Shown here: positions 2,982 through 53,812 of the stretch, piece by piece
Layout of the letters: every line of letters begins with the position of its first letter
How positions within the stretch are numbered: position 1 is the stretch's first letter
Assembly: GCA_009784895.1 (NCBI GenBank)
Contig: WQXJ01000001.1
Coordinates: 12,479-76,478 of the forward strand
Direction of reading: 5' to 3'
DNA from: Micrococcales bacterium
GTDB taxonomy: Bacteria; Actinomycetota; Actinomycetes; Actinomycetales; WQXJ01
Length of the DNA: 64,000 bases
Program-made: the position numbers and the translations under genes
Notes under the pieces: generated by a model
What the model saw: the letters and a program-made list of their open reading frames with translations, nothing else
What the model was told of the DNA's origin: nothing
The model's database searches: none

Positions 2982-5021
2982 GTGGCCCGGCGCATCCGCA
3001 GCGAAGACATCGAGGAAGTGCGCAGCTCTGCCCGCATCGAGGTGATAGTGGGGGAGAGGGTCTCCCTGAAGCCCGCTGGCGTCGGCTCACTCAAGGGTCT
3101 TTGCCCCTTCCACGACGAGCGCACGGCCTCATTTCACGTCCGCCCGGCTGTGGGGCTATGGCACTGCTTCGGTTGCAGTGAGGGCGGCGACACCATCAAC
3201 TTCGTCATGCGCTCGGACATGCTGGGTTTCGTTGAGGCCGTCGAATACCTGGCTTTGCGCTTTGGCGTGCAGCTGCGCTATGAAACGACCGGGCCCGATG
3301 CCGGCGCCGGGCCGGCCAGCGAATCGACCGCCCCGAGCCGTTCCCGGCTGTTCGAGGCCAACCGGCTGGCAGCCAAATACTACGCCTCACAACTCGACAG
3401 CCCGGCGGCTGTGCTCGGACGCAACTTCCTGCGCGGGCGTGGTTTCGGCAAAGATGACGCCGAAACCTTTGGTCTGGGCTACTCACCGGAAGGCTGGGAT
3501 TCGCTGCTGCGGCATCTGACCAATAACAGCTTTACTCATGCCGAGCTGCTGGCAGCCGGCCTGGTCACCCAGGGACAGCGTGGCGTTTACGACCGCTTTA
3601 GGGGGCGGCTGATGTGGCCCATCCGCGACGTCACCAATCAGGTTGTTGGCTTTGGCGCCCGGCGGCTGGCCGAGGATGACCAGGGCCCCAAATACCTCAA
3701 CACCCCTGAGACCCCGCTATACAAGAAATCCCAGATCCTCTACGGGGTCAACCTGGCCAAACAGGATATTTCAGCTAAGCGGCAAGTCGTGGTGGTGGAG
3801 GGTTACACCGACGTCATGGCCGCCTACCTGGCCGGTGTGCGTGAGGCCGTGGCGACCTGCGGTACGGCCTTTGGCCAAGACCACATCAGGGTGGTTAGGC
3901 GGCTGCTAGGCGACTTTGGCGATCCATCTAGCGGGGTCATTACGGCCGATGGCGGAGCTCGGGGCGGGCGAGTTGTCTTCACCTTTGACGGCGACGCGGC
4001 CGGGCAAAAGGCCGCTCTGCGGGCTTTTCAGGGTGACCAAAGCTTCTACGCCCAGACCTTTGTGGCGATTGTGCCCGGCGGCATGGACCCATGCGATCTC
4101 TGGTACGACCAAGGCGATGATGCGCTAAAAGACCTGGTGGCCACGGCTCAGCCGATGTTCAAGTTCGCTATCCGAGTGGCCCTTGATGCCCTCGATCTGG
4201 ACACGGCAGAAGGCCGGGCGGCTGGCCTGAGAGCCGGGGCGCCAATTGTGGCCGGTATCCGCGACGATGTTATCCGGATGGACTACACCCGGCAGTTGGC
4301 CGGCTGGGTTGGCGCCGACTACTCCCTGGTAATGCGGGAGGTCAAGGCGGCCCGAGGTCGCCCGCAGCGGCTTTCAGAAGCGGGGGAGACGGCATCAGGC
4401 CCTGGGCGGGGGGTCATCCCAGCCGATCCGGTGATCCGAGCCGAGCACTTCGCCATCGCCGCGGCGCTGCAGCACCCTAACCTGGTACCGCCCAGTTTTG
4501 ACCAACTGAGCGGCTCAGACCTAAAAACGCCAACCCTGGCCGCCATCTTGGACGCCATCCAGGCGGCCAGGGGAGTAGCCGTGGCCAGATCTGAGGCCGA
4601 AGCCGCGGCCAAAGCCGCTGTTGAAACCAAGATCAAGGCCGCGGCCGAGGCCGGGGCCAAAACCCCGTCTGAAGCTGAGCTCAAGGCAGAGGCCCAGGCA
4701 GCGGTCGATGCCGTTGCCAAAGCCTGGCTGGCCCGTGTCAGCGACCAAGCGGCCCAAGCAGTGCGCCCGGCTATCACCCAGCTGGCGGTCGAACCGTTGC
4801 CAACCACCGAGGCCGGCCTGGAAGCCTACGTGATTGGGGCGACAGACTCGCTGGTTGAGATGGGGCTGACCCACCAGATAGCAGATCTTGACCGGCGGCT
4901 GCGCCAGGCCGATGGCAGCACCGGTCAGGCTGGCCAAGCCGGTTCTGAGGCCATGCTGCGGCAATTGGCTGAACTGCGGCGCCAACGCGACAGCTTGCGC
5001 CTGGAACAAGGCGACTACTAG
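2982..5021 (+). CDS. dnaG: DNA primase
   Basis: Zinc-ribbon motif CPFHDERTASFHVRP..WHCFGCSEGGD and Toprim segment VVVVEGYTDVMA. GTG start gives MARRIRSEDIEEV. Confidence 0.95.
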   Translation: MARRIRSEDIEEVRSSARIEVIVGERVSLKPAGVGSLKGLCPFHDERTASFHVRPAVGLWHCFGCSEGGDTINFVMRSDMLGFVEAVEYLALRFGVQLRYETTGPDAGAGPASESTAPSRSRLFEANRLAAKYYASQLDSPAAVLGRNFLRGRGFGKDDAETFGLGYSPEGWDSLLRHLTNNSFTHAELLAAGLVTQGQRGVYDRFRGRLMWPIRDVTNQVVGFGARRLAEDDQGPKYLNTPETPLYKKSQILYGVNLAKQDISAKRQVVVVEGYTDVMAAYLAGVREAVATCGTAFGQDHIRVVRRLLGDFGDPSSGVITADGGARGGRVVFTFDGDAAGQKAALRAFQGDQSFYAQTFVAIVPGGMDPCDLWYDQGDDALKDLVATAQPMFKFAIRVALDALDLDTAEGRAAGLRAGAPIVAGIRDDVIRMDYTRQLAGWVGADYSLVMREVKAARGRPQRLSEAGETASGPGRGVIPADPVIRAEHFAIAAALQHPNLVPPSFDQLSGSDLKTPTLAAILDAIQAARGVAVARSEAEAAAKAAVETKIKAAAEAGAKTPSEAELKAEAQAAVDAVAKAWLARVSDQAAQAVRPAITQLAVEPLPTTEAGLEAYVIGATDSLVEMGLTHQIADLDRRLRQADGSTGQAGQAGSEAMLRQLAELRRQRDSLRLEQGDY

Positions 5022-47642: not shown

Positions 47643-50600
47643 TTACTGGAAATCGCGGGAGCGGGCCGGCACCGGCAGATAGAGCGGGTGGAGATGACCG
47701 GCTTTGACCCCAACCGCACCATCTTGCTTTTCCAGGCGACCGCTAACCACCAGGGCTGAGGCGCCGCGAGCGATTTTGCGGTACTTATTCCAGACATCGG
47801 CCGTACAGACCACATTGAGCTGGCCGGTTTCGTCTTCAAGCGAGATGAAGGTGACACCCCTGGCGGTGCCGGGACGCTGTCGGTGGGTGACCACACCGGC
47901 TACTTTTAGCCACAGGCCCTCAACCTGGTCTTGGACTTCGATCAGTCGGAAAACCCCGGCGGCGTCCAATTTGTGGCGGACATGAGCTGTCGGGTACTCC
48001 CCCAGTGACACCCCGGTGGACCAGTAGTCGGCGTAGGCCAGTTCCGCCCGGCTCATAGTCGGTAACGCCGGGGCCTCTAAGCCCACCGATGTGCCGGGCA
48101 AAGTGCCGGCCCCGCCCACTGCGCCGGCCGCCCACAAGGCTCGCCGCCTGTCCCCGGCCAAAGTGTCCAAAGCCCCAGCGGTGGCCAGGGTTTCGAGTTG
48201 GGCCGTGGTCAGTTCGGCCCGCCGGGCCAGGTCCTCCAGCGAGCTAAAGGCCGCCTCTTGGCGGGCTGCCACGATGCTTTCCGCCACCGCTGAGCCAATC
48301 CCGCGGACCTCGGCCAGCCCTAGACGCAGGCCAAGGCCCCGGTCGCCGCGTAGCAGCCCGGGGTGCGGTCCAACCCGGTTAGAAGGCGGCGGCGTTGGCT
48401 CCGGCCCGCTTGGCCCAACCGCTTCGACACTGGCCTTGGCGGCGGAGACAGCCACGTTTGGCCCTAACACCACCAGGCCGTGCCGCCGGGCGTCCGCCAC
48501 TAAGGTTTGCGGCGAGTAGAAGCCCATCGGCTGGCTGGCCAGGATTGAGGCGTAGAAGGCGGCCGGATGGAACACCTTAAGCCAGGCGCTGACGTAGACA
48601 ATCAGAGCAAAGGAAAAGGAATGCGATTCGGGGAAACCAAAGTCAGCAAAGGCCCGCAACTGGTCCCAGATTCGTTGGCGCACTTTAGGTGAGTCAATGC
48701 CGTGGGCGGCCATACCGGCCAACAGATCATCTTTGATCGCCGCCATCCGCTCGACTGAACGTTTGGCGCCCATGGCCCGGCGTAGCTGGTCAGCTTGGGA
48801 CGGGCTGAAACCGGCCGCGTCGATGGCGATTCGCATCAGCTGCTCTTGGAACAGTGGCACGCCAAGCGTCTTTTCTAAGGCTGGGCGCAACAATTCGTGG
48901 TCGTAGCTGACAGCCTGGCGCCCGCGGGCTCGTTCGATGTAAGGGTGAACCGATCCGCCCTGGATTGGGCCGGGGCGGATCAGAGCGACTTCGACCACTA
49001 GGTCATAGAACTTCCGTGGCCTAAGCCGCGGCAAAGTCGCCATTTGGGCTCTGGACTCGACTTGGAAAACCCCGACCGTATCCGCAGCGCAAAGCAGGTC
49101 GTAGACCTCTACCACCTCCGGCGGAATGGTGTGCAGCTCCCAGCGTTTGCCCTCGGTCCGTTCAATCTCATCAAAGGCCAGACTGACTGCCCCCAGCATG
49201 CCCAGTCCCAGCAGGTCGAATTTGACTAACCCGGCTTGGGCCACGTCATCCTTGTCCCATTGCAGCACCGAACGGTCCGCCATCCGGCCCCATTGCACCG
49301 GGCAAACGTCGATCACCGGCCCATCGCATAAGACCATGCCGCCGGGGTGTATACCCAGGTGGCGAGGCAAAGATGTCAACTGCTCAGCAAGGTCCAAGAC
49401 ATCTTTGGGGATGCCGCTGAGGTCGTCATCAGCCACTTCCACTTTGGCCCCGGCCTTGCCCCAGGGCCGGTAGTGGATCTGGCCCCGCTTGAGGTCGCCA
49501 TAGCGTTCGATCCGCTTGGACCAAGCGGCCAGCTGCCCCGGGTCATAGCCCAAGGCCCGGCCGGCATCACGCAAGGCCAAACGGGTGCGATAGGAGATCA
49601 CCGCGCCAACTAAGGCCGCCCGTTCCCGGCCGTATTTGGCGTAGACATGTTGAATTACCTCCTCGCGCCGGCCGGATTCGATGTCGAGGTCAATATCGGG
49701 ATAACCCTCACGTTCTGGGGCCAAGAACCGTTCGAACAGCAGCCCGTGGCGGACCGCGTCGACCGCCGTGATGCCAAGGGCGTAGCAAACGGCCGAATTG
49801 GCCGCGCTACCCCGCCCCTGACACAGGATGGATTGGTCACGGCAAAAGTCGACTATCTCCCACATGATCAGGAAGTAGCCGGCCAGGTCGAGCTGGGCGA
49901 TGATGGTCAGTTCGTGTTCAAGCACGGCGTAAGCCTTGTCGTTGCCTGCCCCTGGTGGTCCGTAGCGCCTCTTGGCGCCGGCCAAGGTCAAATGGCGCAG
50001 CCAGCTGTTGTTGTTGTGCCCGGCCGGCACCGCCACTGGCGGCAGCTGAGGTGCTATCAACCGCAGGTCAAAGGCGCATTCGGCACCCAGAGCGGCAGCC
50101 ATAGCGACCGCCTCAGGGTGTGTCCGATGCCGGCGCGCCACGTCGGCAGGGCATCTCAAGTGGGCGGTCGGTGCGGCGGGCAGGTAGCCGTCCATTTGGT
50201 CCAGCGATTGGCGCTGCTTCAACGCGGCCATAGCTGTGGCCAGTGGGAACTGACTTGGGTTGGCGAAGTGAATATTGCCGGTGGCAACTAAAGCCGTCCG
50301 GCCCCGCTGGGCCACCTGGGCCAGGGCGTCACAGCGGGCCGGGTCGAAGGGATCACCGCCCTGGGTGATCTCGACGGCCACATTGTCCCGGCCAAATAGC
50401 GCGGTCAGTTGGTCAAGAGCCCGCCCGGCCGCGTCCAGGTTCCACCCATCGACGCTCTCGATCCCTCTCAAGGGTCCTTGGCGGCAGCCGGTTAGGACCA
50501 GCCATTCGCCGCCACCTTGCTCAGCCAGTTCTTCCAGTTCAAAACTCGGTTGACCTTGCGGCCCTGGGAGATTGCCTAACGCCACTCTCCCAGGGTCCGG

Positions 50601-51017
50601 TGCAGCCTTTTTTGGCCGCGTCTTCGCTGGCAGAAGCTTCGCTTCTGCCGCGTGCGACACGGCGGGGGGTGTTTGGCAACGCCCCCCTAAGCGCAAATAG
50701 CCGCGGGCAATAGTGCGGGATAGCCGGCTGTAACCGGCCGGTCCCCGGGCCAAAACCAGCAGATGGGCGCCGTCACTTAGAGTCAGTTCGGCGCCGTAGA
50801 GCGCGGGCAGGCCAACTGCCCGGGCGGCGGCGGCAAACTGGACTACGCCGTAGAGCCCGTCATGATCAGTCAGGGCCATGGCGGATAGGCCCAATTGGGC
50901 CGCCCGCTCAGCTAAATCGGCCGGTTGACTGACCCCGTCTAGAAAACTGAAAGCGCTGTGGGCGTGCAGCTCGGCATAACGTGGCCCGGGCGCCTCATCC
51001 ACCAACCTCTTAGTCAT
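47643..51017 (-). CDS. dnaE2: error-prone DNA polymerase III alpha homologue
   Basis: YAELHAHSAFSFLDG (PHP domain), palm and fingers motifs, and a C-terminal OB fold. Preferred ATG at 51017 lies 2 nt after the imuB stop. Confidence 0.95.
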   Translation of the reverse strand: MTKRLVDEAPGPRYAELHAHSAFSFLDGVSQPADLAERAAQLGLSAMALTDHDGLYGVVQFAAAARAVGLPALYGAELTLSDGAHLLVLARGPAGYSRLSRTIARGYLRLGGRCQTPPAVSHAAEAKLLPAKTRPKKAAPDPGRVALGNLPGPQGQPSFELEELAEQGGGEWLVLTGCRQGPLRGIESVDGWNLDAAGRALDQLTALFGRDNVAVEITQGGDPFDPARCDALAQVAQRGRTALVATGNIHFANPSQFPLATAMAALKQRQSLDQMDGYLPAAPTAHLRCPADVARRHRTHPEAVAMAAALGAECAFDLRLIAPQLPPVAVPAGHNNNSWLRHLTLAGAKRRYGPPGAGNDKAYAVLEHELTIIAQLDLAGYFLIMWEIVDFCRDQSILCQGRGSAANSAVCYALGITAVDAVRHGLLFERFLAPEREGYPDIDLDIESGRREEVIQHVYAKYGRERAALVGAVISYRTRLALRDAGRALGYDPGQLAAWSKRIERYGDLKRGQIHYRPWGKAGAKVEVADDDLSGIPKDVLDLAEQLTSLPRHLGIHPGGMVLCDGPVIDVCPVQWGRMADRSVLQWDKDDVAQAGLVKFDLLGLGMLGAVSLAFDEIERTEGKRWELHTIPPEVVEVYDLLCAADTVGVFQVESRAQMATLPRLRPRKFYDLVVEVALIRPGPIQGGSVHPYIERARGRQAVSYDHELLRPALEKTLGVPLFQEQLMRIAIDAAGFSPSQADQLRRAMGAKRSVERMAAIKDDLLAGMAAHGIDSPKVRQRIWDQLRAFADFGFPESHSFSFALIVYVSAWLKVFHPAAFYASILASQPMGFYSPQTLVADARRHGLVVLGPNVAVSAAKASVEAVGPSGPEPTPPPSNRVGPHPGLLRGDRGLGLRLGLAEVRGIGSAVAESIVAARQEAAFSSLEDLARRAELTTAQLETLATAGALDTLAGDRRRALWAAGAVGGAGTLPGTSVGLEAPALPTMSRAELAYADYWSTGVSLGEYPTAHVRHKLDAAGVFRLIEVQDQVEGLWLKVAGVVTHRQRPGTARGVTFISLEDETGQLNVVCTADVWNKYRKIARGASALVVSGRLEKQDGAVGVKAGHLHPLYLPVPARSRDFQ
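50611..50662. repeat. palindromic repeat element, copy A (inside dnaE2)
   Basis: tttggccgcgtcttcgctggcagaagcttcgcttctgccgcgtgcgacacgg, with a perfect 9-bp stem ggcagaagc/gcttctgcc at 50629-50649. Confidence 0.85.
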
Positions 51018-52734
51018 AGACCCCCTCAATCTGCCAAACCCCGTTTTGACAGGCCAACAAGGACAAGACGGTGCCATTTGGCCGCGTCTTCGCCGGCAGA
51101 AGCTGCGCCTCTGCCGCGTGCGACACGGGGGTGCCCTCAGGCACCGTCGTGTCAAGGGCGGCGCTATTTGGCCGCGTCTTCGCCGGCAGAAGCTGCGCCT
51201 CTGCCGCGTGCGACACGGGTTGATCCGATTCGACCTGGAGGTAGACCCGGCGCTGTGGTTGTCTGGTCCACCACCGCTCTACTACGGGCCAAGGGCCGGC
51301 CCAACCCTTAACCGGGGCGTTGTCTAGGCGGCTTGGCTCCCCCGACAACTCCAAAGTGGCGCTGACGCGCACCAGGTTGCCACCGGCATCGGACAGATTG
51401 ACCGGCCACGGCTTAGATGGCACCAAAGCTGGTGCTGGGTCAGGTAACTTGCCTGGCCAAGGTTGGTTTAGCGGGCGCAACGGCACGGCCTCATCGCCCC
51501 ATTGGACCAGGCGGATGCGGCTACGGGGGTCACGCCCACCTTGTTCAACTGGCTGGAAGACGGCGCCTTCGCCCAGCATGGCTTGGAGACGATCAGCCCC
51601 GCGGGCGGCCCTGGCCTGGGCTTGGCCTTCGTTGTCCCATAGGCGCGCGGCCGATCCCCCGGCTGGATGAACTTCCTCCGCCTGTAGGCGGATCAGCACT
51701 AGGGCTCCGGTCGGAGCTAGACCACTGCGACCAGTCAGCCAGCCCTCCAACTGCCAACGCAGGCGGTCACGCACCCCGGTCGCGTCAACGCCGTCAAGCC
51801 GCCAGCTGCGGCTGAGGGTTTCGCCGTGTTCGGTGGTGGCTTCGATCCTGAGCCGGTCATAGCTCTGGCCGTGATGGGCCAATTGGCGGTGAAGATCTTC
51901 CGCTAAGCGGCGGCCCAAAAAGGCGGCAGCCTCAATCTGGGTGACAGGCGGGTCGGGTTGGGCTTGCACCACGAACTGAGGCTCTGGTCTCAGAGCCGTC
52001 ACGATCAGGGCGTCTTCTGCCCTGGCCAGGCGCCTAGCCCAAATACCGGTGGTGCCAAAACGCTCGCTGACGGCGCTGGCTGGCAGATTGGCTAGATCCC
52101 CCAAAGTCCGCACGCCTAGGCGGGCTAGCAGGTCGATCAGAGGGTTCAAAACGTCAGCCTGGACCGTGCCTTGCAGAGCCAGTTGGAGCTCTGGTAATGG
52201 CCTAGGTTCAAGGAATTGACTAGAGTGCCCCGTTTGAACGATCCGGTTCTCCCGCGCCGCCAAGATAGCGGCCAACGGGCCATCAGCCACCCCGACCCAA
52301 GCCTCAGAACCAGTCTGAGTGGTGAGCTCATCCAATAGGTGTTCGGCCAGAGCTTGATCAGAGCCGTGGTAACGAGCAGCCCGACCGGCGGGGCATAAGG
52401 CCAAACCGGGTCTAAGCAGCTCGACCCCTGGCACCTGGTCATCCAAGGCTTTAGCCAGCTGCGCAAAGGTTCGAGCGTCGCGGGCTTGGTCGGCTGGCAC
52501 CAGCTGGGCTGCGGGGCAGGCGTCTTGGGCGGTGCGGCGTTTCATACCGCGCCTAGCTCCGGCCTTTCTGGCGGCGGCCGAAAGAGCCTTCACCCGCCCA
52601 GAGCCAAGCACAATGACAGGCTGGTCAGCCGGCGCCTGGCCAGCCATGATGGCGGCTACCACCGGCCAATCCGGTACCCACAAAGCGGCCAGGCGGCGGC
52701 CAGGCGGCGCACTATTCACTAGCCTTCTGGTCAT
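51010..52734 (-). CDS. imuB: Y-family polymerase-like mutasome subunit ImuB
   Basis: LAALWVPDWPV start region and a Y-family-like core. Sits between imuA' and dnaE2. Preferred ATG at 52734 forms an ATGA overlap with the imuA' stop. Confidence 0.85.
   Translation of the reverse strand: MTRRLVNSAPPGRRLAALWVPDWPVVAAIMAGQAPADQPVIVLGSGRVKALSAAARKAGARRGMKRRTAQDACPAAQLVPADQARDARTFAQLAKALDDQVPGVELLRPGLALCPAGRAARYHGSDQALAEHLLDELTTQTGSEAWVGVADGPLAAILAARENRIVQTGHSSQFLEPRPLPELQLALQGTVQADVLNPLIDLLARLGVRTLGDLANLPASAVSERFGTTGIWARRLARAEDALIVTALRPEPQFVVQAQPDPPVTQIEAAAFLGRRLAEDLHRQLAHHGQSYDRLRIEATTEHGETLSRSWRLDGVDATGVRDRLRWQLEGWLTGRSGLAPTGALVLIRLQAEEVHPAGGSAARLWDNEGQAQARAARGADRLQAMLGEGAVFQPVEQGGRDPRSRIRLVQWGDEAVPLRPLNQPWPGKLPDPAPALVPSKPWPVNLSDAGGNLVRVSATLELSGEPSRLDNAPVKGWAGPWPVVERWWTRQPQRRVYLQVESDQPVSHAAEAQLLPAKTRPNSAALDTTVPEGTPVSHAAEAQLLPAKTRPNGTVLSLLACQNGVWQIEGVYD
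51077..51129. repeat. palindromic repeat element, copy B (inside imuB)
   Basis: Identical to copy C and 49/52 identical to copy A by hand alignment. Hairpin at 51095-51115. Confidence 0.85.
51167..51219. repeat. palindromic repeat element, copy C (inside imuB)
   Basis: Exactly 90 bp from copy B. The flanking sequences differ between B and C. Confidence 0.85.
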
Positions 52735-53480
52735 ATCGCTGCCAATCGCTTTGGCTGTTGGTTGGTGGCTAGCGGATCTTGTTGGTGCTGGTGGTCGGGT
52801 GGCTGATGTGGCTGGCCGGCCGCCAAAACCTGCGCTCCGGACCAACGCACATCCAGCCACCCGGCTTCTAGCAGGCCATCGCCTTGCCCTAATGACCGGT
52901 GGCTGATCTGGCTGATTTCGACTTTGAGTTGAGCCCCAGGCCATTGACCACTAGTCACTAAATAGCCTTGATGGTGACGCAAACGGGCCTCTAAGCGCCG
53001 CCGGTCTGCCGCTTGGGAGGCAGTGGCCGTCCAACTATCACCTAATACCACCACGCCAAAGGCGTCGATCAAACTGGCTAGCGCCTTGACCCCACCATCG
53101 CCCAGATCCGGTACCACCACCGCTCGTTCCAAGGCCACCCCGGCCTGGGCCGCAGCCAGGTAACCCAGATCAGGCAGGTGGGCCAAGGCGCCCCAGGTTT
53201 GGGCCTGCCAAACCCCGGCTGCCACCGCCAGCAAGGCGCTAGTTGAACCAGTAACCTGGGCTACCTGCCCTGGTGCCAACAGTGCCGCAGCTGTGGTCTT
53301 GACCTCATCTAAAGTGCACTGGCTGGTCCCGCCGTCTTGTGCGGCCACCAAACGCAACCGCGGCGGGTCCAACGAGCGGTCGAGCCCAGCCTGGCTAACC
53401 GGCCGGGTGCCAGTTGAAACCTCGGCCTGCTTGAGCGCCTGGCTGGCCCTGGCCAGGCGTAGTGCTTGGCTCTCCCCCAC
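52731..53480 (-). CDS. imuA': ImuA'-like mutasome accessory protein
   Basis: First gene of the imuA'-imuB-dnaE2 arrangement. RecA-core-like stretch VAQVTGSTSALLAVAAG..GVALERAVVVPD..FGVVVLGD. Confidence 0.7.
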   Translation of the reverse strand: MGESQALRLARASQALKQAEVSTGTRPVSQAGLDRSLDPPRLRLVAAQDGGTSQCTLDEVKTTAAALLAPGQVAQVTGSTSALLAVAAGVWQAQTWGALAHLPDLGYLAAAQAGVALERAVVVPDLGDGGVKALASLIDAFGVVVLGDSWTATASQAADRRRLEARLRHHQGYLVTSGQWPGAQLKVEISQISHRSLGQGDGLLEAGWLDVRWSGAQVLAAGQPHQPPDHQHQQDPLATNQQPKRLAAI

Positions 53481-53499: not shown

Positions 53500-53511
53500 A
53501 TACATTTGTTC
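53500..53511. promoter_or_regulatory. Cheo/LexA-box-like site 1
   Basis: ATACATTTGTTC compared with GAAC-N4-GTTC; one half-site is perfect. Confidence 0.4.
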
Positions 53512-53521
53512 TAGACCTATC

Positions 53522-53550
53522 AGTCTAACATTGCTAGAACATTTGTCCAA
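53522..53550 (-). promoter_or_regulatory. candidate promoter of the imuA' operon
   Basis: Minus strand reads TTGGAC-N17-TAGACT, about 40 nt upstream of the GTG at 53480. Confidence 0.4.
53537..53548. promoter_or_regulatory. Cheo/LexA-box-like site 2
   Basis: GAACATTTGTCC has one mismatch to GAAC-N4-GTTC and overlaps the -35 and spacer. Confidence 0.45.
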
Positions 53551-53608: not shown

Positions 53609-53670
53609 CCGCACTGCCCTGGATCGAGTCTCACCCTGGCCGCACTGCCCTGGATCGAGTCTCACCCTGG
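53609..53670. repeat. 31-bp perfect tandem repeat, 2 copies
   Basis: ccgcactgccctggatcgagtctcaccctgg appears twice, head to tail. Confidence 0.9.
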
Positions 53671-53719
53671 CCGGCCTGGGCTTCCGGCTTGAACTGGGGT
53701 TTTACGGAGAACGGTGTCC

Positions 53720-53812
53720 GGTGCGGGTGAAAGTCGTTCGGCTGGGCCCCGGTGCGGGTGAAAGTCGTTCGGCTGGGCCCCGGTGCGGGTGAAAGTCGAT
53801 TGGCTGGACCAC
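53720..53812. repeat. 31-bp tandem repeat, 3 copies (third diverged)
   Basis: ggtgcgggtgaaagtcgttcggctgggcccc appears twice perfectly, then ggtgcgggtgaaagtcgattggctggaccacc. Confidence 0.9.

Follow-up and report, generated by a model that had tools for sequence, protein, structure and literature searches.

The question raised by this locus is how a palindromic repeat of about 53 bp came to stand three times inside two genes of one operon, imuB and dnaE2, and each time in the same reading frame. The operon lies in a 64-kb stretch of DNA (the window), which is part of a 96-kb metagenome contig of the MEGAHIT style (ENA ERZ27264051; k141 in the contig name). The answer that we judge to be probable is that the repeat is a member of a structured palindromic family with elements of about 125 nt. 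This family would be of the repetitive extragenic palindrome/bacterial interspersed mosaic element (REP/BIME), MITE (miniature inverted-repeat transposable element) or Rickettsia palindromic element (RPE) kind, would be carried by a lineage of uncultured actinobacteria, recorded under the labels Micrococcales or Bifidobacteriaceae, and would be tolerated in-frame within the two genes. A small, mobile or recombining in-frame palindromic element comparable to the RPEs had been proposed before from the letters of the window (hereafter the sequence-only reading). The proposal is now supported by lineage-specific inserts and by intergenic homologues, from which the mobility would follow by inference.

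When the window was searched with the 52-mer of the repeat, three occurrences were found, all on its plus strand, where none was expected (100 shuffles). One is at 50611-50662 (3 mismatches), the others at 51077-51128 and 51167-51218 (0 mismatches). The copies and their host genes are the following.

50611-50663, minus strand: core copy A, encoding AVSHAAEAKLLPAKTRPK; an imperfect hairpin of 47-49 nt (arms GUGUCGCACGCGG / CCAGCGAAGACGCGGC) whose 9-bp apical stem is perfect
51076-51129, minus strand: core copy B (54 nt), encoding PVSHAAEAQLLPAKTRPN, nested in a 14-bp hairpin
51166-51219, minus strand: core copy C (54 nt), encoding PVSHAAEAQLLPAKTRPN
47643-51017, minus strand: dnaE2 (error-prone DNA polymerase, 1124 aa), host of copy A; from open reading frame (ORF), translation and Pfam
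51010-52734, minus strand: imuB (inactive Y-family polymerase of the mutasome), host of copies B and C; PF00817 IMS

Each of the three copies is an imperfect palindrome of 52-54 nt; all have one orientation and one reading frame and lie within 610 bp. Between copies B and C (51076-51129 and 51166-51219) there is no difference over the 54 nt, and their starts are 90 nt apart. Copy A departs from them at three positions, of which one is an A-U to G.U change in the stem, one a loop base and one a bulge base; the differences between A and B/C spare the hairpin. Two of the three are synonymous and the sole non-synonymous one (K/Q) is within the peptide motif. A central hairpin GGCAGAAGC-N3-GCNTCTGCC is present in every copy and is perfect in A. 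The peptides, AVSHAAEAKLLPAKTRPK in DnaE2 and PVSHAAEAQLLPAKTRPN twice in ImuB, can together be written as (A/P)VSHAAEA(K/Q)LLPAKTRP(K/N). The core is free of stops in all six frames. The frame in use gives a mildly charged peptide without cysteine and the other two sense frames give peptides that are rich in Arg/Cys or in Arg/Gly/Ala. The number of copies, their common frame, the identity and 90-bp spacing of B and C, the 3 differences in 52 positions of A, the hairpin with its perfect 9-bp stem in A, the joint translation and the lack of stops had all been given in the sequence-only reading, and on recomputation each of them holds.

That reading had also asked for the mRNA around each copy to be folded. 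Every core was found to be a stable hairpin that reaches beyond the 9-bp stem: the whole core is an imperfect hairpin of about 47 nt with a folding energy of -32 to -36 kcal/mol (z -2.6 to -5.2, mRNA strand). With the covariance model of the core, R1, copy A scored 77 bits and copies B and C 74 bits each. A hairpin scan brought out no more than 10 strong hairpins in the window and no further repeat family. A 14-nt exact inverted match connects 50389-50402 (conserved dnaE2 coding sequence, ALFGR) with 51161-51174 (the left flank and the end of copy C). It has a BLAST E of 0.04, diverges right beyond the match and is probably due to chance.

Intergenic homologues and the three-hairpin element

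Homologues of the core were found with a pattern made of its arms only (GCCGCGTCTTCGC-N18-30-GCGTGCGACAC). The scan gave four matches, all of them in one metagenome-assembled genome (MAG), Bifidobacteriaceae bacterium Gsp477_bin37, and on four different contigs. In these copies the arms are identical to those of the window and are separated by 21 or 22 nt, whereas the apical stem differs from copy to copy and yet still pairs. All four lie between ORFs, next to housekeeping genes that are unrelated: those for an ABC solute-binding protein and a permease in one case, malate synthase and a LacI regulator in the second and TrkA_C and an ABC-2 permease in the third, while the remaining copy is upstream of greA. 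RNAalifold applied to the core predicted 17 pairs, 5 of which have changes on both sides. In a pair count 96.6% of the cells were paired, versus 87.7% in shuffles and 17-52% with slid partners. As judged from these comparisons, the structure of the core is kept through covariation, and the arms are invariant.

The extent of the element was revised. The 53-mer of the sequence-only reading was confirmed as the core, but the insert in dnaE2 is larger and comprises a complete element of about 123 nt with three hairpins.

50556-50678, minus strand: in-frame insertion of 123 nt (41 aa) in the PHP domain of DnaE2, residues 114-154 (CQTPPAVSHAAEAKLLPAKTRPKKAAPDPGRVALGNLPGPQ); boundaries uncertain by about 9 nt
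50664-50687, minus strand: hairpin H1 (GGGGGGCGUUGCCAAACACCCCCC) of the dnaE2 element, adjoining the core on its 5' side; from the fold, with a homologous hairpin in the Gsp477_bin37 loci L024, L027 and L025 that shows compensatory changes
50562-50595, minus strand: hairpin H3 of the dnaE2 element (CCCUGGGAGAG...CUCUCCCAGGG), encoding PGRVALGNLPG; from the hairpin scan and the fold

The insert folds into three consecutive hairpins (H1, core and H3) with -87 kcal/mol and a z of -7.3. The counterpart of H3, a YTRGG...CCYAR hairpin, is found with compensatory changes in L024, L025 and L027. The whole dnaE2 insert could be aligned end to end with the intergenic elements of these three loci (about 125 nt) at a mean column identity of 71%, and by BLAST it is 75% identical to L024 over 92 nt. 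The consensus structure of the four full elements has 37 pairs, 15 of them with compensatory changes on both sides. This end-to-end homology implies that the dnaE2 insert is one full copy of a three-hairpin repeat of about 125 nt, an element that is extragenic in another genome.

Additional units were seen in the Gsp477_bin37 loci. At L025 3489-3539 and 3632-3683 there is a near-perfect palindrome, CCCGCGTTTCCG...CGGAAACGCGGG, and a degenerate variant of the core, and in L024 the core is flanked by a 37-nt direct repeat (3502-3538 / 3625-3661). The extra palindromic units suggest a BIME-like mosaic of several unit types. When R1 was run over the loci of five relatives, no copy was found except a weak and degenerate one at L005 5340-5391 (minus strand; E 0.13; right arm CCAGCGGAAAC), which is intergenic and upstream of imuA'.

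Rfam 15 gave only sub-threshold matches at chance level, both for the four MAG loci and for the region of the window, and in the literature searches that were made no description of the repeat family turned up. The family seems not to have been catalogued before, and the most apt description is that of a new one of a known kind. Patterns for the whole element and for the central hairpin had 0 matches in a collection of genome contigs, of which the source genome is not a part, and 0 matches in viral contigs; plasmid and phage collections gave no meaningful match. In metagenome contigs, again a collection without the source genome, the patterns had 17 matches, which were rejected as chance palindromes with unrelated flanks. 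Two weak covariance-model matches (window 4577-4612 and L028 8120-8145; E about 0.3) are devoid of the arms and hence regarded as chance. The same holds for the likeness of L002 646-683 to L024, since this is native imuA' coding sequence. A CRISPR repeat, an integron attC site and domain V of a group II intron were ruled out on sequence and architecture.

Inserts in the loops of ImuB and DnaE2

An alignment of the orthologues, also proposed in the sequence-only reading, was made for both proteins. The nearest relatives of ImuB are 62-67% identical to it, and several of their records are labelled as Bifidobacteriaceae MAGs. In an alignment of 23 ImuB sequences, copies B and C fall inside an insertion of 52 residues between the conserved RRVYLQV strand and the LLAC..W.EGVYD strand at the C-terminus; at this place the relatives have 5-10 residues. 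The insert is absent from 21 ImuB relatives (at most 67% identity). Likewise, the 41-residue block of DnaE2 is absent from 5 relatives (57-68% identity), and in 35 further homologues from across the phylum the segment is fixed at 19-20 residues versus 61 here. The absence of the peptide from all these ImuB relatives and from the 5 + 35 DnaE2 relatives implies that it is not an ancestral protein feature. Both insertions are lineage-specific.

AlphaFold modelled residues 510-552 of ImuB with a predicted local distance difference test score (pLDDT) below 50, between confident strands at 494-503 and 556-563. Residues 110-160 of DnaE2, with a pLDDT of 51-70, were modelled mostly as coil that follows a helix at 93-111, and no alignment of this segment to solved structures of Pol III alpha was obtained. 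According to the models both inserts are in poorly defined, low-confidence loops that would be compatible with the fold. In one relative (L003 2887-4659; ImuB P0004, residues about 504-571) an unrelated insertion of 68 residues, rich in Pro/Ala/Gln, occupies the same ImuB-C loop, which indicates that this loop is a recurrent permissive site. A distant DnaE2 homologue (P0233; L030 3001-4134) has a 25-residue insertion with LPRKTPP at the same site of the PHP domain. It was ruled out as a member of the family, as its DNA has no related palindrome. On the contig of P0233 imuB and dnaE2 are each split in two ORFs, and these are either pseudogenes or the result of long-read indel errors.

The insert in imuB is built differently from that in dnaE2 and contains the following features.

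51067-51222, minus strand: in-frame insertion of 156 nt (52 aa), residues 505-556, placed in the ImuB-C beta domain's last loop
51062-51153, minus strand: hairpin H3' of the imuB element, with arms 51062-51075 and 51140-51153 (13/14 complementary); from the inverted repeat, the reconstruction and the fold
51070-51075: GGTGCC, left-hand member of the 6-bp direct repeat on either side of core B (possible target-site duplication)
51130-51135: GGTGCC, right-hand member of this 6-bp direct repeat

In the order of the mRNA, the insert consists of core C, a spacer of 12 nt and a hairpin that is split by core B. Excision of 51076-51135, that is, of B and one of the repeats (60 nt, 20 codons), preserves the frame and rebuilds the 14-bp hairpin. 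The chance of a 6-nt match at exactly these positions beside B is estimated at about 4e-4 at the local base composition. Core B has the appearance of a nested insertion that duplicated its target site, or of a copy mediated by microhomology. Copies A and C have a common core of 52 nt (3 differences) and unrelated flanks. This points to copying of the core alone between the genes, or else to two elements, about 500 bp apart, that were homogenised by gene conversion.

Explanations of the repeat

If the repeat is a structured palindromic family that is tolerated in-frame, its full element would consist of a variable hairpin H1, the core hairpin and a spacer, followed by a third hairpin, H3. The core would have invariant arms (GUGUCGCACGCGG ... 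CCAGCGAAGACGCGGC) and an apical stem that is free in sequence but always paired. One full element would have entered dnaE2, and a core with a hairpin would have entered imuB, both landing sites presumably encoding exposed loops that tolerate changes in length. As the lengths of the inserts are multiples of 3 and the used frame is open, the genes would have remained intact, with the element translated as a flexible peptide. The near-identical cores would have arisen locally afterwards, core B as a nested copy of C with the 6-bp duplication. We infer the mobility of the element and this order of events, and the peptides are presumably passengers and not functional. Local copying would explain the cluster of three copies, and the common frame may be due to copying in a coding context or to selection for the least harmful open frame.

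A number of observations weigh against this explanation. Neither a transposase nor an empty-site allele was found, although no scan for PF01797 (RAYT, Y1) was made. The three copies are within 610 bp of one operon, unlike what random dispersal would give. The expectation of copies elsewhere, raised in the sequence-only reading, was borne out by the four intergenic sites in a different genome but not in this one: R1 detected no further copy in the window (64 kb) and an additional 7.7 kb of its contig, about 72 kb in total. This suggests a local cluster and not a sample of a dense, dispersed family. Flanking direct repeats occur at B alone, copies A and C being without them. In addition, the left flank of B partly resembles that of C (CGGTGCC vs CGGCGCT), so that the duplication at B could reflect microhomology or a target preference. 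Finally, one frame and one orientation for all three copies would have a chance of about 1/36 if the insertions were independent and random, which is a hint of selection on the peptide or of copying within a coding context.

Selection could also operate on the nucleic acid. The hairpins might act in cis on the imuA'-imuB-dnaE2 transcript or its DNA, either as elements of RNA processing or stability or as binding sites that set the ratio or the timing of ImuB and DnaE2, and their accumulation would then be adaptive. The structure covaries across genomes, and the hairpins, which bracket the imuB/dnaE2 junction, are highly stable (-32 to -87 kcal/mol, with z values as low as -7.3). All wobble pairs of the seven copies are G.U when read on the GUGUC-sense strand and would be A.C mismatches on the other, which amounts to about 4-5 independent events, and the strand that favours G.U is the mRNA sense of imuB and dnaE2. 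To a modest degree this favours one strand, be it RNA or single-stranded DNA, as the constrained form. One of the intergenic homologues separates the gene for the solute-binding protein from the permease gene in an ABC operon, which in E. coli is where mRNA-stabilising REPs are classically found, and the degenerate member in the relative L005 is upstream of imuA'. However, the orientation of the elements in Gsp477_bin37 relative to the flanking genes is mixed: L024 has its element antisense to the ABC operon, and in L027 the element runs against the greA gene that lies downstream. A DNA-level, REP-like element fits this better than a dedicated mRNA signal. Moreover, relatives run the same operon without the hairpins and no Rfam family matches them. 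A role in cis is in our opinion unlikely. We find it quite unlikely, too, that the three-hairpin element is a functional module of single-stranded RNA or DNA whose arms resemble a recognition site. Such a module would be adaptive in the SOS mutasome operon, as a control or processing signal that couples the output of ImuB and DnaE2 or as a common exposed peptide tag.

It might instead be the peptide that matters. VSHAAEAxLLPAKTRP would then be a functional short linear motif, acquired by ImuB and DnaE2 for binding to a common partner or to each other, with the frame kept by selection and the palindromic DNA as the vehicle. The single frame and orientation of the three copies in spite of six open frames is in line with this. 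So are the synonymous nature of two of the three differences between A and B/C and the location of the ImuB copies in ImuB-C, a beta domain that has been proposed as the likely DnaE2-binding module (PMC6511836). The sole non-synonymous difference (K/Q), though, falls inside the motif, the segment is modelled as a low-confidence loop and all relatives are without it. The elements of Gsp477_bin37 are intergenic, and with apical stems that differ in sequence and length they could not encode the same peptide. A search of 1.84 billion cluster representatives returned ImuB itself and unrelated repetitive proteins only and no other protein with the motif, at a low power for single copies, which would be missed in proteins with relatives of >50% identity. 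A functional peptide motif is improbable on this evidence.

Could the cluster have arisen by local events only? Pure duplication or template switching at quasi-palindromes within the operon would account for the location of all copies of this genome within 610 bp and for the identity of B and C. The 6-bp flanking repeat could be the microhomology of a template switch, and the region is rich in other inverted repeats. The resemblance to another genome would then have to be shared ancestry or chance. This is highly improbable in view of the four homologous elements, which occupy unrelated loci on four contigs of that genome with different apical stems, and of the homology of the whole three-hairpin dnaE2 insert to them; the orthologous imuB and dnaE2 genes, furthermore, are without any precursor sequence. 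An artefact of metagenome assembly can practically be dismissed even though the window is a MEGAHIT-style contig, because the 96-kb ENA contig and a 114-kb NCBI/JGI contig (from a MAG labelled Micrococcales bacterium) encode identical ImuB and DnaE2 proteins, a repeat of 54 nt is shorter than the k-mer given in the name of the ENA contig (k141) and both ORFs stay open.

The mutasome cassette and known repeat systems

The host genes are part of a mutasome cassette, imuA'-imuB-dnaE2, with all genes on the minus strand and the repeats towards the 3' end of imuB and the 5' end of dnaE2. An MT3502_N-like imuA' is followed by an IMS imuB with an ImuB-C tail and by a PHP/Pol3-alpha dnaE2, an order that recurs in the loci of 5 relatives.

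52731-53480, minus strand: imuA'; Pfam MT3502_N

The called dnaE2 gene has the Pfam domains PHP, DNA_pol3_alpha, finger, HHH_6 and OB, and its product is identical to NCBI MCL2802381.1, which is named error-prone DNA polymerase. ImuB, 574 aa as called, is identical to MCL2802382.1 and has 1274 homologues, many of them named ImuB. The longest ORF of imuB begins at 52944, within imuA'; the start at 52734 is backed by the gene caller and by homologues. The stop of imuB overlaps the start of dnaE2 (ATGACTAA; 51010-51017), which suggests that the two genes may be translationally coupled.

Directly upstream of the imuA' start, at 53502-53550, are two SOS-box-like palindromes, TTGGACAAATGTTCTA and TCTAGAACAAATGTATTG, which suggest that the cassette may be under LexA control. 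The repeat core itself does not fit a LexA box (GAAC-N4-GTTC type), the boxes lying upstream of imuA' instead. Nor does it, by reading of the sequence, fit a PafBC/RecA-NDp-like motif, the form of which we take to be TGTCGGTG-N8-TANNNT. Two tandem arrays of 31 bp are also present in the intergenic region upstream of imuA', at 53609-53673 (2.1 copies, 100%) and 53718-53807 (2.9 copies, 96%).

Palindromic elements that are intragenic and in-frame are an established phenomenon, known from RPE, ERIC and QMITE1 (PMC10969869). RPEs are palindromic repeats of about 100-150 bp that are found in-frame in coding genes, with an intact ORF and the peptide at a structurally tolerant site (PMC10969869). The inserts in dnaE2 (123 nt) and imuB (156 nt) are similar in that a repeated palindrome of this size class is inserted in-frame within genes, the ORFs are intact, orthologues are without the insert and both sites are low-confidence, loop-compatible segments. 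RPEs, however, occur in dozens of intragenic copies in many unrelated genes per genome, whereas here only three cores were seen in the about 72 kb covered, all of them in one operon; in addition, the known relatives of the present repeat are intergenic and the phylum is a different one. The likeness to the RPE families of Rickettsia is meant as an analogy only, and membership is not claimed.

With the REP/BIME elements of enterobacteria and pseudomonads, which are associated with RAYT transposases, the repeat has in common that it is a short, G+C-rich, imperfect palindrome that is extragenic at unrelated loci, including gaps in ABC operons, and that it is joined with other hairpin units into mosaics of conserved structure. 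Unlike REPs, it has no GTAG tetranucleotide at either end of the core in 7/7 copies and its copy number here appears to be low. Invariant arms with a freely covarying apical stem and in-frame copies inside genes are not typical of REPs either. ERIC, Correia and QMITE1 are small, non-autonomous structured repeats that occasionally form in-frame fusions inside genes (PMC10969869, PMC3184786). One copy of the present repeat (B) has a flanking 6-bp direct repeat, a possible target-site duplication. Unlike MITEs, the repeat lacks clear terminal inverted repeats and a parent insertion sequence, and direct repeats are found at 1/3 copies. The repeat is not assigned to any named family.

If the repeat is indeed a structured palindromic family tolerated in-frame, the "selfish palindromes inside genes" that are best known from Rickettsia would extend to an uncultured actinobacterial lineage, with a structural signature that is unusually clear: invariant arms, a covarying apical stem and a mosaic of three hairpins. 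The inserts mark the last loop of ImuB-C and a loop in the PHP domain of DnaE2 as places where these poorly understood mutasome proteins accept large insertions, which may be useful for tagging or engineering them. Should the clustering in a damage-inducible operon not be accidental, it would point to a connection of hairpin repeats with the expression or activity of the error-prone polymerase.

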